In this document: one piece after another, positions 28,666 through 45,086 of the stretch
Numbering within the stretch: the first letter of the stretch is position 1
Layout: every line of letters starts with the position of its first letter
From: a virus
Reading direction: 5' to 3' (one strand)
UHGV virus genome: UHGV-0326727
DNA length: 64,000 nt
Program-made: the position numbers and the translations under genes
The notes under the pieces: generated by a model
Database searches by the model: none
Seen by the model: only the letters and a program-made list of their open reading frames with translations
What the model was told of the DNA's origin: nothing

Positions 28666-28936
28666 AGGGAAGTGGGAGATTTTACCACTAGTTAGTGAGG
28701 GTGGTAATGGTTGTGAAATGTACATGATACGTGGTCATGTTCCAGAACCAATTGCACTTGAGATGATAAACAATTTTACAGATGGTTCTTACAAAGACTT
28801 AGGAGAACCAACTGTCAAGCAACAATGGGTTAAACCTGTACCAGACAGCACAGGTAACTGTAGTGTACTTTATCACGTTGTAGACCCTGCAAAATGCAAA
28901 TCTGCAATGGCAGTAACAAACGTAACTTTTGATTGA
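28658..28936 (+). CDS. hypothetical protein
   Basis: 92 aa ORF. Confidence 0.3.
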   Translation: MAKGKWEILPLVSEGGNGCEMYMIRGHVPEPIALEMINNFTDGSYKDLGEPTVKQQWVKPVPDSTGNCSVLYHVVDPAKCKSAMAVTNVTFD

Positions 28937-29829
28937 GAGAGAAAACCATGAAAACATCTATCCGTGTTACAGTTCATTCACCAACTAAAGGAACTCATGA
29001 AGAAGAGTTTAACATCATCCAATTCCCTTCTGGTGAGATTGGTGGAAACTTTTCACCAGAGTTTGTTGATTTTACTGCTTATGCAGCATCATCTATCAAC
29101 AATGTGATTATGATTGTAAAAGGTTATGATAAAGATACATTGTTTGCTGTGGCACTTGCTAAAGAGGCGGTGGACAACTTAGTACCTCATAAGTTTGCTA
29201 TGAAGACCATTATCTTTTACTATTTGCCAAATGCACGTTATGACCGTCACATGTTTAAAGGTGATGCAGCAGCTTTGAAAGTGTTTGCACAACAGGTTAA
29301 TGCAATGGGTTTTGATGCAGTCTGTGCAGTTGACCCTCACAGCTATGTACCAGATAACCTGTTTAACTGCTTCCAGAGTATTCCTCAAAAGGAAATTGCA
29401 GTCCACTATGCAAATGACCCACTAGTTGATTACTTAGTAGCCCCAGATGCAGGTGCTGCTAAGAAGATTGCAGAGACTGCTAAAGAGGTGGATAAACCAT
29501 ACATCACAATGTCTAAAGTGCGTAACCTTAAGACTGGTGAGATTACCGGTATGCGAATCCTTGATGATGTTGATTTGACAGATAAAACCGTTATGATTCT
29601 GGATGATATTTGTGATGGAGGTCGTACCTTTATAGAGGCAGCTAAACATCTTCGTGAAGCAGGTGCAAAACGTGTGGAACTTTATGTAACACATGGTATC
29701 TTCTCTAAAGGTGTTGAAAACCTTCTTGACAATGGTATTGACCACATCTACACTACAAACTCTTTAGGGGAAGCTAAAGACCGTGGTTTAACACATTATG
29801 GTCAAGTTACTGTAGCAAACCTTGATTAA
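28933..29829 (+). CDS. ribose-phosphate pyrophosphokinase (Prs) family protein
   Basis: PRPP/ribose-phosphate binding loop VMILDDICDGGRT and HGIFS motif. Confidence 0.65.
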   Translation: MREKTMKTSIRVTVHSPTKGTHEEEFNIIQFPSGEIGGNFSPEFVDFTAYAASSINNVIMIVKGYDKDTLFAVALAKEAVDNLVPHKFAMKTIIFYYLPNARYDRHMFKGDAAALKVFAQQVNAMGFDAVCAVDPHSYVPDNLFNCFQSIPQKEIAVHYANDPLVDYLVAPDAGAAKKIAETAKEVDKPYITMSKVRNLKTGEITGMRILDDVDLTDKTVMILDDICDGGRTFIEAAKHLREAGAKRVELYVTHGIFSKGVENLLDNGIDHIYTTNSLGEAKDRGLTHYGQVTVANLD

Positions 29830-29838
29830 AACTTTATA

Positions 29839-29860
29839 GGGGGCTTTTAAGCCCCATTTT
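29839..29860 (+). terminator. rho-independent terminator
   Basis: gggggcttttaagcccc hairpin followed by ATTTT. Confidence 0.5.
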
Positions 29861-29875
29861 GAGAGAGATTAAAAG

Positions 29876-31657
29876 ATGACTAAATCACTTTATGCAGTAC
29901 CAGCAGGTTTAAACGCAGATGCTTACAAATCTGGTCACATTTACCAGTATCCTAGTGCAACAGAATACTTGATGTTCAACCTGACACCACGTAGTGATAA
30001 ATGGTTTAACAGTCCTTTAGCAATTGACGGTGTAGTGGCTTTTGGTATTCAACGTTTTATTAAAGACTACTTAATAGACCACTGGAACGCCACCTTCTTC
30101 GAACGTGACAAAGAAGAAGCAATTGACGAAATCTTAGAAGTCATGAACGGTGTTCTGGGTAAAGATGCTATTGGTCGTGAACATTGGGAAGCACTTCACG
30201 ACTTAGGTTATCTACCAGTTGAAGTATACGCTGTAGAAGAAGGCACAGTTGTTCCTATGCGTGTACCAATGATTGTCTTCCAGAACACTGTTTCAGGTTT
30301 CCATTGGGTAGCGGGGTATCTGGAAGATGCTTTCTCTGCTGAGATTTGGAAGGCTTGTACCATTGCAACTATTGCATTGCACTACAAACGTATCTGTAAG
30401 AAGTGGTCTGACCTTACTTGTGATAACGACTTACATTTGCCTTATCAGTGTCATGACTTTGCTATGCGTGGTATGTCCGGCTTTACTGATGACGCATTTA
30501 ACGCTGTAGGACACTTAACCAGCTTTAAAGGAACTGATAGCTTCCCTGCTGTATATACAGCTAAACGCATCTATGGACAGTCCTACCCAATCTCTGATAT
30601 TGGTAGTTCTGTACCAGCCACTGAACACTCTGTAATGTGTGCAAACATTGCTTGGGAAGGTGGTAATGAGTTGATTGAAGAAGAAAGACGCTTTAAAGGT
30701 GAGTTACAAACTTTCCGTCGTTTCTTAACAGAAACTTACCCAACTGGTATTGCAAGTGTTGTTTCAGACACTTATAATTTCTGGAGAACTGTATCAGAAA
30801 TCTTACCAGCACTTCGTAAAGAGATTATGGAACGTGACGGCAAACTGGTAATTCGTCCTGACTCTGGTGACCCTGTACATATTGTCACAGGTTATAAAGC
30901 AATCCACTTAGAGTGTGCTAAAAAGGCTTATTACGAACACCTAAGCAAGCTGGAAGCCAGTGACACAATGCTGAATGCTGTTCTGAACATGAAGCTTGAA
31001 AACATCAACTATGGTATTGCTGGATGGCTATTGTCAGAAGGCTACGAAATGGTTGTTGACAGAGAAGACTTTGAAGTTGCTGATACAGTGCTGTTGAAAA
31101 ATGCTTATATGGTTGGCTCTGCAAACGTTGTAACACGTCCTGTAGCAGAGATTGATGGGGCTATTAAGACCCTGTATAACATCTTTGGAGGGACTATCAA
31201 CTCTAAAGGTTTTAAGGTACTGGATGAGCACATTGGCCTTATTTATGGTGACTCTATCACGTTGGAACGTGCAAACGAAATCCTGAAACGTTTGTATGAA
31301 ATGGGTTTTGCAAGCTCTAACGTAGTGTTTGGTGTAGGTTCTTATACTTACCAGTACATGACTCGTGACACCTTTGCATTTGCTGTCAAAGCAACTCTTG
31401 CAAGTATTGGTGGTAAAGAGATTATGCTTGCAAAAGACCCTAAAACAGATAGCGGTGTTAAGAAGTCTGCTTTTGGTGGTGTAGCACCCATGTGGGATGG
31501 TGATAAGCTGAAAGCTGTAGATGGCTATGGATTCCAGAGCTTTGCAGATGTGCTTGAACATCCAGCTTGTGCTTTACGTTTAGTCTTTAGTGACTCTGAG
31601 CAGTTCGGTTACACAACTCTTGGTGATATTCGAAATAATATTGACAAGCAACTTTAA
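29876..31657 (+). CDS. nicotinamide phosphoribosyltransferase (NAMPT) family protein
   Basis: 593 aa; FKGTDSFPAVYTA and SDTYNFW regions resemble NAMPT/NAPRTase type II phosphoribosyltransferases. Confidence 0.6.
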   Translation: MTKSLYAVPAGLNADAYKSGHIYQYPSATEYLMFNLTPRSDKWFNSPLAIDGVVAFGIQRFIKDYLIDHWNATFFERDKEEAIDEILEVMNGVLGKDAIGREHWEALHDLGYLPVEVYAVEEGTVVPMRVPMIVFQNTVSGFHWVAGYLEDAFSAEIWKACTIATIALHYKRICKKWSDLTCDNDLHLPYQCHDFAMRGMSGFTDDAFNAVGHLTSFKGTDSFPAVYTAKRIYGQSYPISDIGSSVPATEHSVMCANIAWEGGNELIEEERRFKGELQTFRRFLTETYPTGIASVVSDTYNFWRTVSEILPALRKEIMERDGKLVIRPDSGDPVHIVTGYKAIHLECAKKAYYEHLSKLEASDTMLNAVLNMKLENINYGIAGWLLSEGYEMVVDREDFEVADTVLLKNAYMVGSANVVTRPVAEIDGAIKTLYNIFGGTINSKGFKVLDEHIGLIYGDSITLERANEILKRLYEMGFASSNVVFGVGSYTYQYMTRDTFAFAVKATLASIGGKEIMLAKDPKTDSGVKKSAFGGVAPMWDGDKLKAVDGYGFQSFADVLEHPACALRLVFSDSEQFGYTTLGDIRNNIDKQL

Positions 31658-31670
31658 AAGTATATGATAA

Positions 31671-31694
31671 GAGGCTCCTACGGGAGCCTTTTTA
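31671..31694 (+). terminator. rho-independent terminator
   Basis: gaggctcctacgggagcctt hairpin followed by TTTT. Confidence 0.6.
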
Positions 31695-35888: not shown

Positions 35889-36437
35889 ATGAAGAAGTTG
35901 ATTCTAGGTTTGTGCTTAATGTTTACAGCACACTTATCTTATGCAGTTGACTGCCCAGAGCTATCAATTAGCCAAAAAGTAAACATGTTAAAAGCTTACC
36001 AGTATGGTGAGAATAATATGGGGAAGGGCTGGGGTATTACTCTAGCAGCTATAGCCTTACAAGAGTCAGAGTTAGGTCTGAAGGTAGAGAATAAAAAGAC
36101 CCATGACTATGGTATTTTCCAGAATCACTTGAAGACTGTTGTAAAGCGTAACAAAATTAGTCCTAATGTGGCTAAAAAGAAACTCTTAAAAGATTTTGAC
36201 TATGCAGCAAAAGAGACGCATAAAGAGCTTGAGTTTTGGACGAAGGTACATGGTCAACCAAAGTCAAAGAAGACTTTACAAAAAGTTTTAGCATCATATA
36301 ATGCTGGGTATTCGTACAAAATTCCTAAAGCTAAGAAATACTCTCAAGATGTCTACAACAATATGAAAGTTATTGCTCAATGTGAATTTGCAACAAACAT
36401 TTCTAAGGTAAATCATGAAAAAATTAAGAAAGTCTGA
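35889..36437 (+). CDS. secreted lytic transglycosylase-like protein
   Basis: Signal peptide MKKLILGLCLMFTAHLSYA; AIALQESELG and DYGIFQ resemble SLT-domain catalytic Glu and GLMQ motifs. Confidence 0.4.
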   Translation: MKKLILGLCLMFTAHLSYAVDCPELSISQKVNMLKAYQYGENNMGKGWGITLAAIALQESELGLKVENKKTHDYGIFQNHLKTVVKRNKISPNVAKKKLLKDFDYAAKETHKELEFWTKVHGQPKSKKTLQKVLASYNAGYSYKIPKAKKYSQDVYNNMKVIAQCEFATNISKVNHEKIKKV

Positions 36438-37110
36438 TGAAGTACTGTGTCATGCTTATGACTTACATCCTCATGAGTTAGGTCTTGATTCCTGTGTATG
36501 GACCCCAGAACAGTGCAGAGATTTTGAAGATACTGCAAGAGAGGTTGTATGCTCACTTGAAGAGTTCCACACATCAGAATCAATTGTGAACGTTGTGGAC
36601 AAAGAGACTGGACAATCTATAGGTGTAAGACGTGACAGTTTAGTCATAGTCAATAAAGACCTTGTAGAAAAAGGTAACCTTATCTTAGCAGACATTGATG
36701 GTGTTCTTACAAATTTTAATCACGAAGATTTCTCAACGGAATTGATTGATGGGTCATTTTCACAGTACACTAATTTACTTGACTCTGTAAGTGCAAAGCC
36801 AACGTATGTTTTCAATATTATTGATGCAATCTCTAATCATGCTGCCATTGGACTCTTGACAGCGAGGGGTGAATCTCAGAGAATACCTACTGAGATGTTT
36901 TTAAGGCATTACATAGAGCATGATTACATGCTTTTTATGCGTGGTTTTGGAACTAATTCTATAAGTGCAGAAAGTTTGAAAGTGAGGATGATTCAGTCTT
37001 GCATTCTGCCTTACTTTAATATAGTATGTTTTATAGAAGATACAGAGAAGAATGTTCAGAAGGTAAACAGAATCCTTCCACACATTAAAACCATGTTAGT
37101 TAAACATTGA
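36415..37110 (+). CDS. HAD-superfamily hydrolase-like protein
   Basis: DIDGVL matches HAD motif I DxDG(T/V); start uncertain (overlaps upstream gene). Confidence 0.4.
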   Translation: MKKLRKSDEVLCHAYDLHPHELGLDSCVWTPEQCRDFEDTAREVVCSLEEFHTSESIVNVVDKETGQSIGVRRDSLVIVNKDLVEKGNLILADIDGVLTNFNHEDFSTELIDGSFSQYTNLLDSVSAKPTYVFNIIDAISNHAAIGLLTARGESQRIPTEMFLRHYIEHDYMLFMRGFGTNSISAESLKVRMIQSCILPYFNIVCFIEDTEKNVQKVNRILPHIKTMLVKH

Positions 37111-37638: not shown

Positions 37639-37986
37639 ATGACATTTAAAGAGTTCTGTCAAGCCACTTTCATAATTGTTTTCTTAGTTGGAGCAGGTGT
37701 CTGGGGAGGATACTCTTACAGAGACTATCAAGTTGCTGAAGCTGAGCTAAATAATGAGAAACTAATAAGTGTTGCTAAAGATGCTTATCAGGAAGGTTTA
37801 GCCACACTCAGCACCAATTACAAAAATGATTTGAAAGATGTGCTTGCTAAGAATAAGCATACAAAAGAGGTACTAACATATGAAAAAACTAAGCCAGAGT
37901 TTTATAATGTTTGTGTTACTGATAATTATGTCAGGGTGTTCAACGAACAAAGTGAACAGTACATTCAAAAACTCCCAAGTAAGTGA
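37639..37986 (+). CDS. putative i-spanin (N-terminal TM, periplasmic domain)
   Basis: TM segment ATFIIVFLVGAGVWGG then charged helical region; downstream lipoprotein gene embedded out of frame. Confidence 0.4.
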   Translation: MTFKEFCQATFIIVFLVGAGVWGGYSYRDYQVAEAELNNEKLISVAKDAYQEGLATLSTNYKNDLKDVLAKNKHTKEVLTYEKTKPEFYNVCVTDNYVRVFNEQSEQYIQKLPSK

Positions 37987-38149
37987 GAGTGACAAGTACA
38001 CTCAAGAAGAGACAAGATTCATTGTCAAAGGTAATACTGGCAGTGATGTGGCAGCAGCCCTTGAGTTTTATCGTGATGGTTTTTACCAGTGCACAATAAA
38101 AGCTAATAACCTTATTGATATGATTTTATTAGGAAACAAACAGCAATGA
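37880..38149 (+). CDS. putative o-spanin / lipoprotein embedded in +1 frame
   Basis: MKKLSQSFIMFVLLIIMSGCS signal peptide with lipobox MSGC; starts inside the preceding gene. Confidence 0.4.
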   Translation: MKKLSQSFIMFVLLIIMSGCSTNKVNSTFKNSQVSESDKYTQEETRFIVKGNTGSDVAAALEFYRDGFYQCTIKANNLIDMILLGNKQQ

Positions 38150-38415
38150 CAGAGAATGAAGACACTTTCTATGTAGAAGGGTACTTACTGCTACCACGAC
38201 CAAAAGAAACTTATATGCGGTTTGATTTCTCACCAACCATTATGGATAATGTGATGTGTCATATCTTTATGCAAGGTGTCACAGCACAGCTTAAGCATGT
38301 TGGTAAAGAGTGCAAAATAAAGGTTGACACTCATCCAGAAATCAAAGAGAATCACTACGCATGGTTCTTACCAGACTCTAAAGAAATCTTAGCAGTTCTA
38401 AAAACGAGGAAATGA
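38146..38415 (+). CDS. hypothetical protein
   Basis: 89 aa ORF. Confidence 0.3.
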   Translation: MTENEDTFYVEGYLLLPRPKETYMRFDFSPTIMDNVMCHIFMQGVTAQLKHVGKECKIKVDTHPEIKENHYAWFLPDSKEILAVLKTRK

Positions 38416-38726
38416 TTATGCAATTCCAGCCAACAAATCGTGGATTTTCTTATGCAGAATTTAAAGATGCTAAAGGAGAGATTTGTACTTTACAAGAAAG
38501 TTCATCATATGAACCATGTATCTGGTTAGGTGCTAAAGAGGTCTCTGTTCAGTACCTAGATGGTGGCTGGAAAACACTTGATATCCCAGCATTAGTAGGC
38601 AAAGATTTTGTAGGTAACCAAAGAATGAAACTCAATCAAGAACAGGTAAAAGAACTGTTGCCGTACCTCCAATACTTTGCTGAAAATGGTGAATTACCAA
38701 CAGAGGAACTTACAAATGCAGATTAA
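38412..38726 (+). CDS. hypothetical protein
   Basis: 104 aa ORF. Confidence 0.3.
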   Translation: MIMQFQPTNRGFSYAEFKDAKGEICTLQESSSYEPCIWLGAKEVSVQYLDGGWKTLDIPALVGKDFVGNQRMKLNQEQVKELLPYLQYFAENGELPTEELTNAD

Positions 38727-39042
38727 CGGAAGAGATTTTGTAGCCGTTTACTACGAGAAAGATAAAGAAGTTGGCGTAGCACAAGTATCTTATGGTAATG
38801 GTAAGTGGTTGTATGGGACAATCGCAGTAGTCGGAACAAGAAGTGATACAAAAACTTTTAAAGACTGTGTTGACCTTCTTGAGGAATCCATCCATAATCA
38901 TTGGTGTCTGATATGGATGACTGACAACGAAGTGATAGAACGCTTCAAAAAGATTGGTATCAACATTGATAGCATTGAGCATGTTGACTTGTATGAGCTA
39001 ACTGAGAAGGTAAACTATGAAAGTAATACTAGCCAGAGATAA
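38677..39042 (+). CDS. hypothetical protein
   Basis: 121 aa ORF. Confidence 0.3.
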   Translation: MLKMVNYQQRNLQMQINGRDFVAVYYEKDKEVGVAQVSYGNGKWLYGTIAVVGTRSDTKTFKDCVDLLEESIHNHWCLIWMTDNEVIERFKKIGINIDSIEHVDLYELTEKVNYESNTSQR

Positions 39043-39250
39043 AAAGACCCGCAAGATTGTACGTTCAGCAGTATTCATAGGGAGAGATGAAGTCGTCCCG
39101 TTTGCAGGGGAAGATGTGCTAACTTATAAGAAGGGTTTAAAACGTAAATTCAGTGACCGTTTACGCGGCTTCATCTCTGAACCATTAGAAGATTTCAAAA
39201 GTCGCTGTGGCAAAGGCATCATCATTCAAGAGGCAATTATTCATGGCTGA
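39017..39250 (+). CDS. hypothetical protein
   Basis: 77 aa ORF. Confidence 0.3.
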   Translation: MKVILARDKKTRKIVRSAVFIGRDEVVPFAGEDVLTYKKGLKRKFSDRLRGFISEPLEDFKSRCGKGIIIQEAIIHG

Positions 39251-39443
39251 TTTCTGCAAAGATTGTGCTATCGAAATGTTTGGACGTGATACAGGTGACT
39301 TAAAAGGTCTTATCACTGAAGATGACTTTAAAGCTGGCTATGCAATGCCAGTAATCTGTGAAGGTTGTGGATGTATCTGGGTAGACCACGAAGGACAACG
39401 TGTAAAACCTTCAGAAGATAAAGAATCTTGGGAGAGATGCTAA
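39207..39443 (+). CDS. small Cys-rich protein
   Basis: 78 aa; CKDC...CEGCGC cysteines. Confidence 0.3.
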   Translation: MAKASSFKRQLFMADFCKDCAIEMFGRDTGDLKGLITEDDFKAGYAMPVICEGCGCIWVDHEGQRVKPSEDKESWERC

Positions 39444-40229
39444 ATGGGTATTGTAAAAATCATCAATGGGGATATCTTCTCCGCATTTGATAAAGGTAAG
39501 TTTGATATTATTGGTCACGGTTGCAACTGTATGAATTTAATGGGTGCAGGTATCGCTGATAAGATTTCTAAACTTTACCCAAAAGCATATGAGACCGATA
39601 CAGAAGTTTATCTGTATGCAGGTGGTATAGGCCACAAACCCTGTGAAAATTTACTAGGCAATTTCTCTGTAGCACGTTTAAAACAAGGACGTATAGCTAA
39701 CCTTTACACTCAGCTTAAGACTGGTAAAGATGCCCGATACAGTGCTTTAGAGTCATCTTTGAAACAGCTTAACAGATACTGTGAAGTTAATCAGTTGAAG
39801 AAAGTTGGGCTACCTATGATTGGTGCAGGTATCGGTGGGCTAGACCCTCAAGCCGTCACCGTTATCATTAATCAGGTGATGAAGAGTGTAGATGTGTATC
39901 TGTATGTCTACGAAGGAGAGATGTACCACAAGTTACGCTCAGGTTGGAAGAACTACTGTGAACCAGAATACTTTGCAGGTGTAGTAGTGTTCACTGATGA
40001 TGCAGTTACCCTCTTCAGACGAAGAAAAGGTAAGATACATCAAAGTAACCCTCCGGTTGAAAAGATGTCTCTAAGTAACGCTCTAGTTACCCACCTGTCG
40101 AAGAGCAATCACAGAATTGCAGTAACATTTGGCAGTGATGCAGATACATATATCTATGCAAGAACTGATGAGGATGTTGAGGAAATTTTCTCTTCACCGG
40201 AAGTAACCTTCTTAGACGCAAAGAACTAA
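39444..40229 (+). CDS. macro-domain-like protein (putative ADP-ribose binding/processing)
   Basis: N-terminus IVKIINGDIFSAF...FDIIGHGCNCMNLMGAGIADKI parallels the macro-domain GDIT...VNAAN..LxGGGGVxxAI signature. Confidence 0.45.
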   Translation: MGIVKIINGDIFSAFDKGKFDIIGHGCNCMNLMGAGIADKISKLYPKAYETDTEVYLYAGGIGHKPCENLLGNFSVARLKQGRIANLYTQLKTGKDARYSALESSLKQLNRYCEVNQLKKVGLPMIGAGIGGLDPQAVTVIINQVMKSVDVYLYVYEGEMYHKLRSGWKNYCEPEYFAGVVVFTDDAVTLFRRRKGKIHQSNPPVEKMSLSNALVTHLSKSNHRIAVTFGSDADTYIYARTDEDVEEIFSSPEVTFLDAKN

Positions 40230-40289: not shown

Positions 40290-40500
40290 AAGGAGGGCTT
40301 TTTCATTTCAGGATTGTGCAGGTAGAGTTCTGGACAGAAATCTGTAGAGAAAATTTTGAACTCCAAAGAGAAAATTCATTTTCAAACTGTGCAGGTAATC
40401 TCCAAAGAGCTTTTTCATTTTCAAAACGTGCAGACCCCGCTCAGGTCGGGCAAGAAAAATCATTTTAGAATTGTGCAGGTAGGTGGGTGCAGGTGGGGAT
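40290..40500. repeat. four direct repeats of a 25-bp motif (iteron-like)
   Basis: tcatttcaggattgtgcaggta / tcattttcaaactgtgcaggta / tcattttcaaaacgtgcaga / tcattttagaattgtgcaggta, plus extra gtgcaggtgggg; no ORF. Confidence 0.6.
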
Positions 40501-40657
40501 GTCGCCATTTCTCACAAGGCTACCACATCTGAAAAGAAAAGTCAACAGAAAAATTTGTAGCGGATTGAAAAATAATTCTTGATTGTAGTTCTGTTTTGTG
40601 GTAGTCGCGTGCGCCCGTTTCATTACAGTTTTTGCAAAAATATTTTTAAAATTCCTA

Positions 40658-44543: not shown

Positions 44544-45086
44544 ATGAAATGCTTTCACGGTACTACTCAAGAAAACTTTATCAACCTGATTAATAACGGT
44601 GATAAACCATCAGGCGCATGGAATTGTTCGGATATGGACGGCAATTTTTACGTGTATCCAGAAAATAAAATCTATGGCGACGATGAGGAAGAAATAATCT
44701 CTGAAGGTATCCAGCAAGCTTTAGGCAATGCCACTATAACCGCAGCTTTCCAGATGAAAACCCAAAATATTGTTATCTTAGAACTTGATATCCCAGAGGA
44801 TGAGTTGAATGATGATTATTCTTGTGATAATATGTCGAGCGTAGCAAGTTTTACAGAATACTTCGATTTAAATTGGATTAAAAAGGTTTACGTAACCGAG
44901 TTTAATGCAATGTTTTCACCTTTTTGTCTTCCTTCACTGGATAACCCAAATTTAAACTATCTTGAGGAGACATTAGAACTACTTGCTAAAAGTGTTCAAC
45001 AGTCGGACAGTATTCAGGTTTTTTGTGACATCATGGATACACTGACAGGAAACATTACAGAAGAGGATTTAAAGAGCTTTTTATAA
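44544..45086 (+). CDS. hypothetical acidic protein with N-terminal FHGT motif (array gene 11)
   Basis: Type-1 cassette upstream; MKCFHGTTQENF... see findings. Confidence 0.4.
   Translation: MKCFHGTTQENFINLINNGDKPSGAWNCSDMDGNFYVYPENKIYGDDEEEIISEGIQQALGNATITAAFQMKTQNIVILELDIPEDELNDDYSCDNMSSVASFTEYFDLNWIKKVYVTEFNAMFSPFCLPSLDNPNLNYLEETLELLAKSVQQSDSIQVFCDIMDTLTGNITEEDLKSFL

Follow-up and report, generated by a model that had tools for sequence, protein, structure and literature searches.

The gene at positions 39444-40229 (+ strand) of a 64,000-nucleotide stretch of UHGV virus genome UHGV-0326727, the window of this analysis, very probably encodes an active macro hydrolase of the Poa1p type, predicted to cleave a substituent from C1'' of ADP-ribose (ADPR), and is a dispensable accessory gene that probably serves counter-defense. 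Its specific role may be that of a detached Adpp, which converts the ADPR-1''-phosphate produced by aRES defense proteins to ADPR for use by the phage's own NARP1 pathway; we assign this role a probability of roughly 0.45. The source genome is a Felixounavirus (Felix O1-like phage). DNA of the macro-gene region shares 93 to 98% identity with that of ~250 phages of the Felix O1-like group from E. coli, Salmonella, Shigella, and Citrobacter, and the protein has the same sequence as SME50_071 (100% identity, tblastn) and is 98.1% identical to bas63_0095 (gp95) of phage JohannRWettstein/Bas63. The macro-domain identity of the gene is not new, as it is already in the public annotation: SME50_071 and Bas63 gp95 are recorded as “putative phosphatase,” and other orthologues as “macro domain-containing protein” or “O-acetyl-ADP-ribose deacetylase / ymdB,” the deacetylase label being in our view wrong. 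The new element is modest, namely the presence in Felixounaviruses of an as yet uncharacterized family member that lies apart from NARP1 and has an orphan domain attached to it. Felix O1-like phages, Bas63 among them, serve as the reference system for NARP1, and they are employed in phage therapy and in the biocontrol of E. coli and Salmonella.

A Poa1p-type macro domain fused to an orphan domain

The original prediction had called a macro domain from motifs at the N-terminus, and this call is borne out by a profile hidden Markov model, by the predicted fold, and by conserved ligand-binding and catalytic residues. Pfam Macro (PF01661) matches the protein with 32.3 bits (E 1e-7), above its gathering score of 22, with residues 25 to 141 aligned to model positions 2 to 117 of 118, and PHROG 335 (“phosphatase”) matches with an E value of 2.7e-113. 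PDB sequence matches comprise TARG1/OARD1, coronavirus (viral) macrodomains, TTHA0132, and yeast Poa1p. An AlphaFold2 model of the full-length protein, built from 30 homologues, has a mean predicted local distance difference test score (pLDDT) of 90.8 and a predicted template-modeling score (pTM) of 0.88. A Foldseek search of the PDB with this model returned macrodomains only (245 chains at E <= 1e-3), with target-normalized template-modeling (TM) scores ranging from 0.77 to 0.87 at E ~1e-10: 0.86 for TARG1, 0.81 for the DarG macrodomain, and 0.77 for Poa1p. The structural matches are confined to the first ~155 residues, for which we confidently predict the three-layer alpha/beta/alpha macro fold. 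The macro assignment therefore holds for residues 1 to 155, and the remaining residues 156 to 261 form a separate domain. The gene and its parts are as follows.

39430-39436, + strand: Shine-Dalgarno-like GGGAGAG, 7 nt 5' of the macro-gene ATG, read from the sequence
39441-39443, + strand: TAA of the upstream open reading frame (ORF), directly abutting the macro-gene ATG
39444-40229, + strand: macro gene ORF, from ATG start to stop codon, encoding a two-domain protein of 261 aa
39444-39908, + strand: macro domain of the Poa1p/Tk.4/Adpp type, residues 1 to 155 (PF01661, model pLDDT mostly >90, Foldseek)
39516-39530, + strand: H25-G-C-N28-C29 motif; H25, G26, N28, and C29 invariant in 30 homologues
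39543-39557, + strand: G34-A-G-I-A38, first phosphate-binding (glycine-rich) loop; columns invariant or near-invariant, A38 invariant
39699-39713, + strand: N86-L-Y-T-Q90 motif; N86, L87, T89, and Q90 invariant (HMMER alignment to TARG1)
39822-39839, + strand: G127-A-G-I-G-G132, second glycine-rich loop, with G131 at the position of TARG1 D125
39909-40226, + strand: C-terminal domain, residues 156 to 261 (~105 residues); modeled as a six-strand beta unit between an initial and a terminal helix
40259-40300, + strand: terminator-like hairpin and T-run at the end of the macro gene's transcription unit (consensus scan only)

The motifs that had suggested a macro domain are really present in the ORF, as G9-D10-I11 and as DIIGHGCNCMNLMGAGIADKI at residues 21 to 41, but the earlier alignment of the latter to the MacroD “GGGVD” loop did not stand. 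MacroD enzymes carry their catalytic Asp in this loop. Counting from the conserved Asn, that Asp aligns with the invariant A38 and not with D39, and the loop of the window protein is therefore assigned by alignment to the G-x-G-[IV]-A form of TARG1, Poa1p, and DarG and not to the MacroD form. The protein has the two glycine-rich loops and the conserved Asn, all invariant in the 30 homologues, as are the further residues G36, A38, P124, G127, and G129; ADPR binding is predicted from the loops and the Asn.

When the protein was aligned with Adpp of Vibrio phage Gary, T4 Tk.4, and PhiKZ gp104, H25 and N28 corresponded to H24 and N27 of Gary Adpp, and N28 to N23 of PhiKZ gp104. Where TARG1 (K84), DarG (K80), and PhiKZ gp104 (“FPTK”) have their catalytic Lys, the window protein has Q90, although MAFFT sets the Lys of PhiKZ gp104 one column off, within a loop. 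Yeast Poa1p (PDB 6LFQ/6LFR), with ~23% identity, shares the “H-x-C-N-C...G-x-G-I-A” pattern, which aligns over residues 8 to 56; it is a cellular enzyme acting on a tRNA-splicing by-product, unlike a phage counter-defense protein. Aligned with Poa1p, H25 presumably corresponds to His23 (mutated in 6LFS), and Poa1p S30 and F152 (the mutated residues of 6LFT and 6LFU) are presumably not kept in the phage family.

The C-terminal domain is an orphan, and its sole occurrences are in fusions with this macro domain in Ounavirinae-type phages. Pfam gave no family for it, only a subthreshold match to a PH domain (E 0.08); a PDB sequence search gave no match, and among solved structures none was similar to it, including the partner-binding domain of DarG. 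A BFVD search returned only the SUSP2 orthologue, and a profile search of 1.84 billion representatives returned 11 matches, all of them macro fusions, truncated calls of such fusions, or spurious beta-propeller repeats. The pTM of the full-length model suggests a fixed packing of this domain against the macro domain. A DNA-binding or DNA-mimicking function based on conserved charge was considered and rejected, as the isoelectric points of the homologues range from 4.6 to 9.5 and no charge is conserved.

Relationship to the characterized members of the family

By sequence, the window protein is a member of the Poa1p-like macro family of phages (PHROG 335), which includes both Adpp and Tk.4; its protein cluster (P0030) carries the name “Poa1p_like.” BLASTP identities are 34.8% to T4 Tk.4 over 161 columns (E 2e-23), 27.4% to Gary Adpp (E 4e-13), and 24% to PhiKZ gp104 (E 5e-4). 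A profile of 12 NARP1-adjacent macro proteins recognizes the window protein with 125 bits (E 1e-39). A neighbor-joining (NJ) tree was computed from an alignment of 42 sequences with 300 bootstraps, and the Ounavirinae proteins were monophyletic in 276 of these. Sequence comparison describes them best as forming a third lineage within a single enzyme family, about equidistant from Adpp and Tk.4.

Two possible discriminators between Adpp and Tk.4 were set aside. Profile scores (125 bits for Adpp against 109 bits for Tk.4) come from profiles that differ in depth, and the motif sets “HGCNC/LYTQ” and “HQxNC/LYGQY” fail as functional markers since the first also occurs in NARP1-adjacent macro proteins of Acinetobacter and Aeromonas phages. 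Membership in the MacroD/YmdB deacetylases was likewise rejected: the window protein shares with them the macro fold and the Asn, but the catalytic Asp position is an invariant Ala, the structural matches are weaker than those to TARG1, DarG, and Poa1p, and NCBIfam gave no YmdB or MacroD match at E <= 1.

NARP1 genes and a possible detached Adpp

The original prediction had linked the macro gene to an “NAD module” at 28933-31657. To judge by its sequence, this module is NARP1, with both enzymes encoded.

28933-29829, + strand: Adps (ADP-ribose pyrophosphokinase, phosphoribosyl pyrophosphate synthetase-like), first NARP1 enzyme; Pfam Pribosyltran and Pribosyl_synth, 81.2% identical to bas63_0079
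29876-31657, + strand: Namat (nicotinamide ADP-ribose transferase, NAMPT-like), second NARP1 enzyme; Pfam NAPRTase and NAMPT_N, 98.1% identical to bas63_0080

The mechanically called Adps ORF starts with TTG at 28933 and has 298 aa, against 293 aa for the Bas63 product, and translation probably begins, as in Bas63, with the ATG at 28948 (MKTSIRV...). Adps is far more diverged from Bas63 (81%) than Namat (98%). In SME50, an HNH homing endonuclease lies between Adps and Namat (1928-2419 of record L001), which the window lacks (29829-29876); the match is split in the same way in BPSELC-1 and LF82P9, and the endonuclease gene is a mobile insertion within the NARP1 operon.

NARP1 was defined in Bas63 (g79-80), where Adps forms ADPR-pyrophosphate from ADPR and ATP and Namat combines it with nicotinamide to form NAD+. 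The pathway defeats NAD-depleting defenses such as SIR2-HerA in Bas63, and a second independent study agrees. The aRES defense proteins, which contain a RES domain and occur in E. coli, Klebsiella, and Enterobacter, split NAD+ into nicotinamide and ADPR-1''-phosphate, a product that NARP1 cannot use (Osterman et al., bioRxiv 10.64898/2026.01.28.702374). According to the same study, 15% of NARP1 phages encode in the operon the Poa1p-like macro protein Adpp, for which Poa1p is cited as the closest homologue of known enzymology. Purified Adpp of phage Gary (KNV71_gp137) converts ADPR-1''-phosphate to ADPR, the three-gene operon overcomes aRES, and the H24A and N27A substitutions inactivate the enzyme and abolish its anti-aRES activity (10.64898/2026.01.28.702374).

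We infer that the window protein could act in the same way on the same substrate. The aRES protein would split NAD+ into nicotinamide and ADPR-1''-phosphate, useless to NARP1; the macro domain would take off the 1''-phosphate to leave ADPR; Adps would pyrophosphorylate the ADPR; and Namat would join the product to nicotinamide, so that NAD+ is rebuilt. Felixounaviruses would thus possess a split “NARP1-AP” pathway, with the phosphatase 7.8 kb from Adps and Namat.

We favor this role because its partners are present in the genome, the functional residues are conserved (H25 and N28 among them), the hosts carry aRES, the Adpp survey was blind to a distal gene, and the gene shows no Sir2-HerA phenotype. 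The two NARP1 genes and the macro gene occur together in ~250 Felixounavirus-like records and in all the Ounavirinae-type relatives inspected, even where macro identity falls to 33%. The order Namat, rIIA, rIIB, polynucleotide kinase (PNK)-like gene, and macro gene is kept in three metagenomic relatives with macro proteins of only 33 to 41% identity and in Erwinia phage vEam_W_25 (Kolesnikvirus). In several other NARP1 phage groups the macro gene also lies far from Adps (at 12.5 kb and 89.9 kb, respectively, in Klebsiella phage K54_rec1). The survey reached two genes to each side of NARP1, and its Table S1 holds no Escherichia or Salmonella phage and does not contain the window gene (10.64898/2026.01.28.702374); at 7.8 kb, the gene was missed because it lies outside that range.

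The genetic data from Bas63 are consistent with a detached Adpp. In PhageMaP, g95 scores positive and is nonessential in all hosts reported; with the panel of 33 defense systems, g79 and g80 are required against Sir2-HerA and g95 is not flagged as a counter. No Sir2-HerA phenotype of g95 is expected, since Adpp is needed only when the product is ADPR-1''-phosphate and not ADPR. The PhageMaP text never mentions DarT, and aRES was described only after that study. If gp95 is a detached Adpp, Felix O1-like phages hold a complete answer to RES-type NAD+ phosphorolysis, and the reported NARP1-AP frequency of 15%, which refers to the two-gene range, is a clear underestimate.

Several observations weigh against a detached Adpp. 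The macro gene lies 7,787 bp, or ~15 genes, downstream of Namat, and the intervening genes include rIIA, rIIB, a HAD/PNK-like gene, and spanins. Consensus scans place terminator-like hairpins at 31669 (31669-31692, just past Namat), 35802, and 37598. Because of this distance and these hairpins, the macro gene is not part of the NARP1 operon, being farther than two genes from Adps and Namat. Its linkage to NARP1 in distant relatives was discounted as independent evidence, since the whole block is syntenic and may reflect vertical inheritance. The macro family is present in 2,797 phage records and an Adps-like gene in 1,416, and at least one role of the family must therefore be independent of NARP1; in T4-like phages the macro gene stands at the tk.4 position, and none of these phages is among the Adps matches listed. 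Of the 300 bootstraps of the NJ tree, 245 (82%) separate the Ounavirinae proteins and Tk.4 from 11 NARP1-adjacent Adpp sequences. By trimmed-alignment identity, Tk.4 (35.6%) is the nearest characterized protein, ahead of Gary Adpp (29.5%), although by a small margin over the Pseudomonas and Acinetobacter NARP1-adjacent macro proteins (33 to 35%). Gary Adpp also differs in its motifs (“HQCNC...YGQY...GCGLAGGDW” against “HGCNC...LYTQ...GAGIGG” in the window protein), and Adpp proteins in general are 27 to 35% identical to the window protein. Finally, the conserved C-terminal domain is extra: characterized Adpp proteins (~150 to 170 aa) have a single domain, and ~105 additional residues are not obviously needed by a small-molecule phosphatase.

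The link to the NAD module that the original prediction drew is thus plausible, as Adpp is known to feed NARP1, but the macro gene belongs to another transcription unit. The broader placement in NAD/ADP-ribose conflict biology was right, in that both leading candidate roles concern NAD-consuming defenses; coupling to the NAD module is one of these two options.

De-ADP-ribosylation of DNA and other candidate roles

The second option follows from T4. Deletion of tk.4, a gene long annotated as “phosphatase, A1pp motif,” sensitizes T4 to DarTG2, and its product was named AdfM in the HIDEN-SEQ preprint, which proposed on genetic support that Tk.4 de-ADP-ribosylates DNA (10.1101/2025.11.20.689424). 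T4 lacking AdfA and AdfN remains DarTG2 resistant. The window protein could likewise remove DarT2-attached ADP-ribose from thymidines in single-stranded phage DNA and so restore replication, a role that we consider possible and regard as the main rival to a detached Adpp. Tk.4 and the window protein have the HGCNC, NLYTQ, and GAGIG motifs and the Gln at the DarG-lysine position in common, and the bootstrap grouping with Tk.4 points the same way. The best structural matches, TARG1 and DarG, belong to the class for which robust hydrolysis of thymidine-ADPr has been shown. DarG is also the sole NCBIfam match of the window protein (NF048014, antitoxin DarG), though far below the cutoff, with 47.7 bits against 250 and only the macro part aligned. 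The succession of a macro domain and a C-terminal domain parallels DarG2, and by analogy with that layout the C-terminal domain might help to engage DNA or toxin. A position apart from NARP1 would also fit an independent role.

The residues argue otherwise, since the catalytic Lys of DarG, TARG1, and PhiKZ gp104 is the invariant Gln (Q90) and Asp125 of TARG1 is G131; membership in the DarG/TARG1 type was rejected on these grounds, despite the shared G-x-G-[IV]-A loop and conserved Asn. PhiKZ gp104, also called AdfM, strips DarT2-made ADP-ribose from DNA, and its N23A variant has reduced activity (Morgan et al., Cell Rep 2026), but this biochemically proven enzyme is only 24% identical to the window protein. 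The evidence for Tk.4 is genetic and comes from a preprint, and DNA de-ADP-ribosylation by the Poa1p-like subfamily is a proposed activity. Unlike the window protein, Tk.4 is a single domain of 155 aa, and the C-terminal domain resembles neither the partner-binding domain of DarG nor any other solved structure. The identity to Tk.4, moreover, barely exceeds that to some NARP1-adjacent macro proteins. If gp95 does act like Tk.4, anti-DarTG2 protection would extend to another large group of phages, and thymidine de-ADP-ribosylation would be possible without the DarG lysine.

Two macro subfamilies have independently received the name AdfM, that of PhiKZ gp104 (DarG type, with the catalytic Lys, biochemically proven) and that of T4 Tk.4 (Poa1p type, with Gln at this position, genetic evidence only). 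Since their identities to the window protein are 24% and 34.8%, respectively, care is needed when annotation is transferred under this name.

A detached Adpp and an anti-DarTG2 factor are not mutually exclusive, because both would cleave at C1'' of ADP-ribose. It is conceivable, though unlikely, that the lineage-restricted C-terminal domain alters the role of the hydrolase by recruiting it to a defense protein (of the DarT2 or aRES type) or to nucleic acid, and that the two-domain enzyme is a dual-purpose hub, missed by operon-based surveys, which detoxifies ADPR-1''-phosphate for NARP1 and reverses DNA ADP-ribosylation. As a corollary, NARP1-AP would be several times more common than reported, with the phosphatase often far from NARP1.

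The substrates of macro domains in general include many ADPr conjugates. Hydrolysis of some other conjugate, such as ADP-ribosylated RNA or protein from another host toxin, O-acetyl-ADP-ribose, or an RNA-repair by-product (e.g., downstream of a 2'-phosphotransferase), would accord with this breadth, with the deacetylase labels on some GenBank orthologues, and with the HAD/PNK-like gene in the same block and the many tRNA genes of the lineage; we nevertheless consider it improbable. The label is contradicted by the invariant Ala at the MacroD Asp position and by the lack of a YmdB/MacroD match in NCBIfam, no ADP-ribosyltransferase was found among the neighboring ORFs scanned, and both characterized members of the Poa1p-like family point to aRES or DarTG2 roles. 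A 2'-phosphotransferase has been suggested nearby: the PhageMaP preprint likens Bas63 gp107, which is conditionally important in E. coli S17-1, to the NAD-binding domain of the RNA 2'-phosphotransferase Tpt1. The window carries its orthologue at 44544-45086 (97% identical; PHROG 3303, unknown function). As a Tpt1-like source of ADPR-1''-phosphate-type products this orthologue was rejected, since neither Pfam nor PDB sequence searches support it.

A noncatalytic binder of ADP-ribose or a derived signal (a sponge), or a degenerate macro domain without current function, is very unlikely: ligand binding is all that some macro domains do, and phages are known to make sponges for ADPR-derived signals, but the residues of Adpp catalysis are invariant in relatives down to ~30% identity, the full-length gene is kept in ~250 genomes and in distant lineages, and its closest relatives are enzymes.

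Neighboring genes and repeats

The PNK-like gene (36415-37110) encodes a 231-aa protein named “polynucleotide kinase” in Bas63 and in PHROG 3970; in each of the relatives inspected, the gene is kept in this block, with rIIB on one side and the macro gene on the other. Broader PNK profiles match the protein only in their HAD-phosphatase part, and its relatives give weak HAD_PNKP matches; the product may be a 3'-phosphatase and not a kinase. Two genes upstream of the macro gene, a 77-aa ORF (39017-39250) has a subthreshold match to Pfam Gad1 (Gabija anti-defense 1; E 0.029) over the C-terminal 45 positions of the model, which is probably due to chance. The small genes at 37639-39443, upstream of the macro gene, are all of unknown function, and other counter-defense genes may be among them.

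Past the macro-gene hairpin, a gap of ~500 bp contains three to four direct repeats with the core TCATTTTCAAAnTGTGCAG (window 40294-40560). Copies stand at 40376, 40415, and 40460, with a weaker one near 40303, at a spacing of 39 to 45 nt; the window has four matches, against 0.17 expected by chance. Annotation of the gap varies, with one coding sequence (CDS) of 50 aa on the + strand in SME50 and two small CDSs on the - strand in Bas63, and the gap has no Rfam match. Although the repeats were not found in one metagenomic relative (L008), the same three to four copies occur at the same place in Bas63, SME50, the Kolesnikvirus vEam_W_25 (L010), and two other metagenomic relatives (L007 and L009), and they are kept in the last three although the macro proteins of these are only 33 to 41% identical. 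The repeat-containing gap may be a regulatory or iteron-like element.

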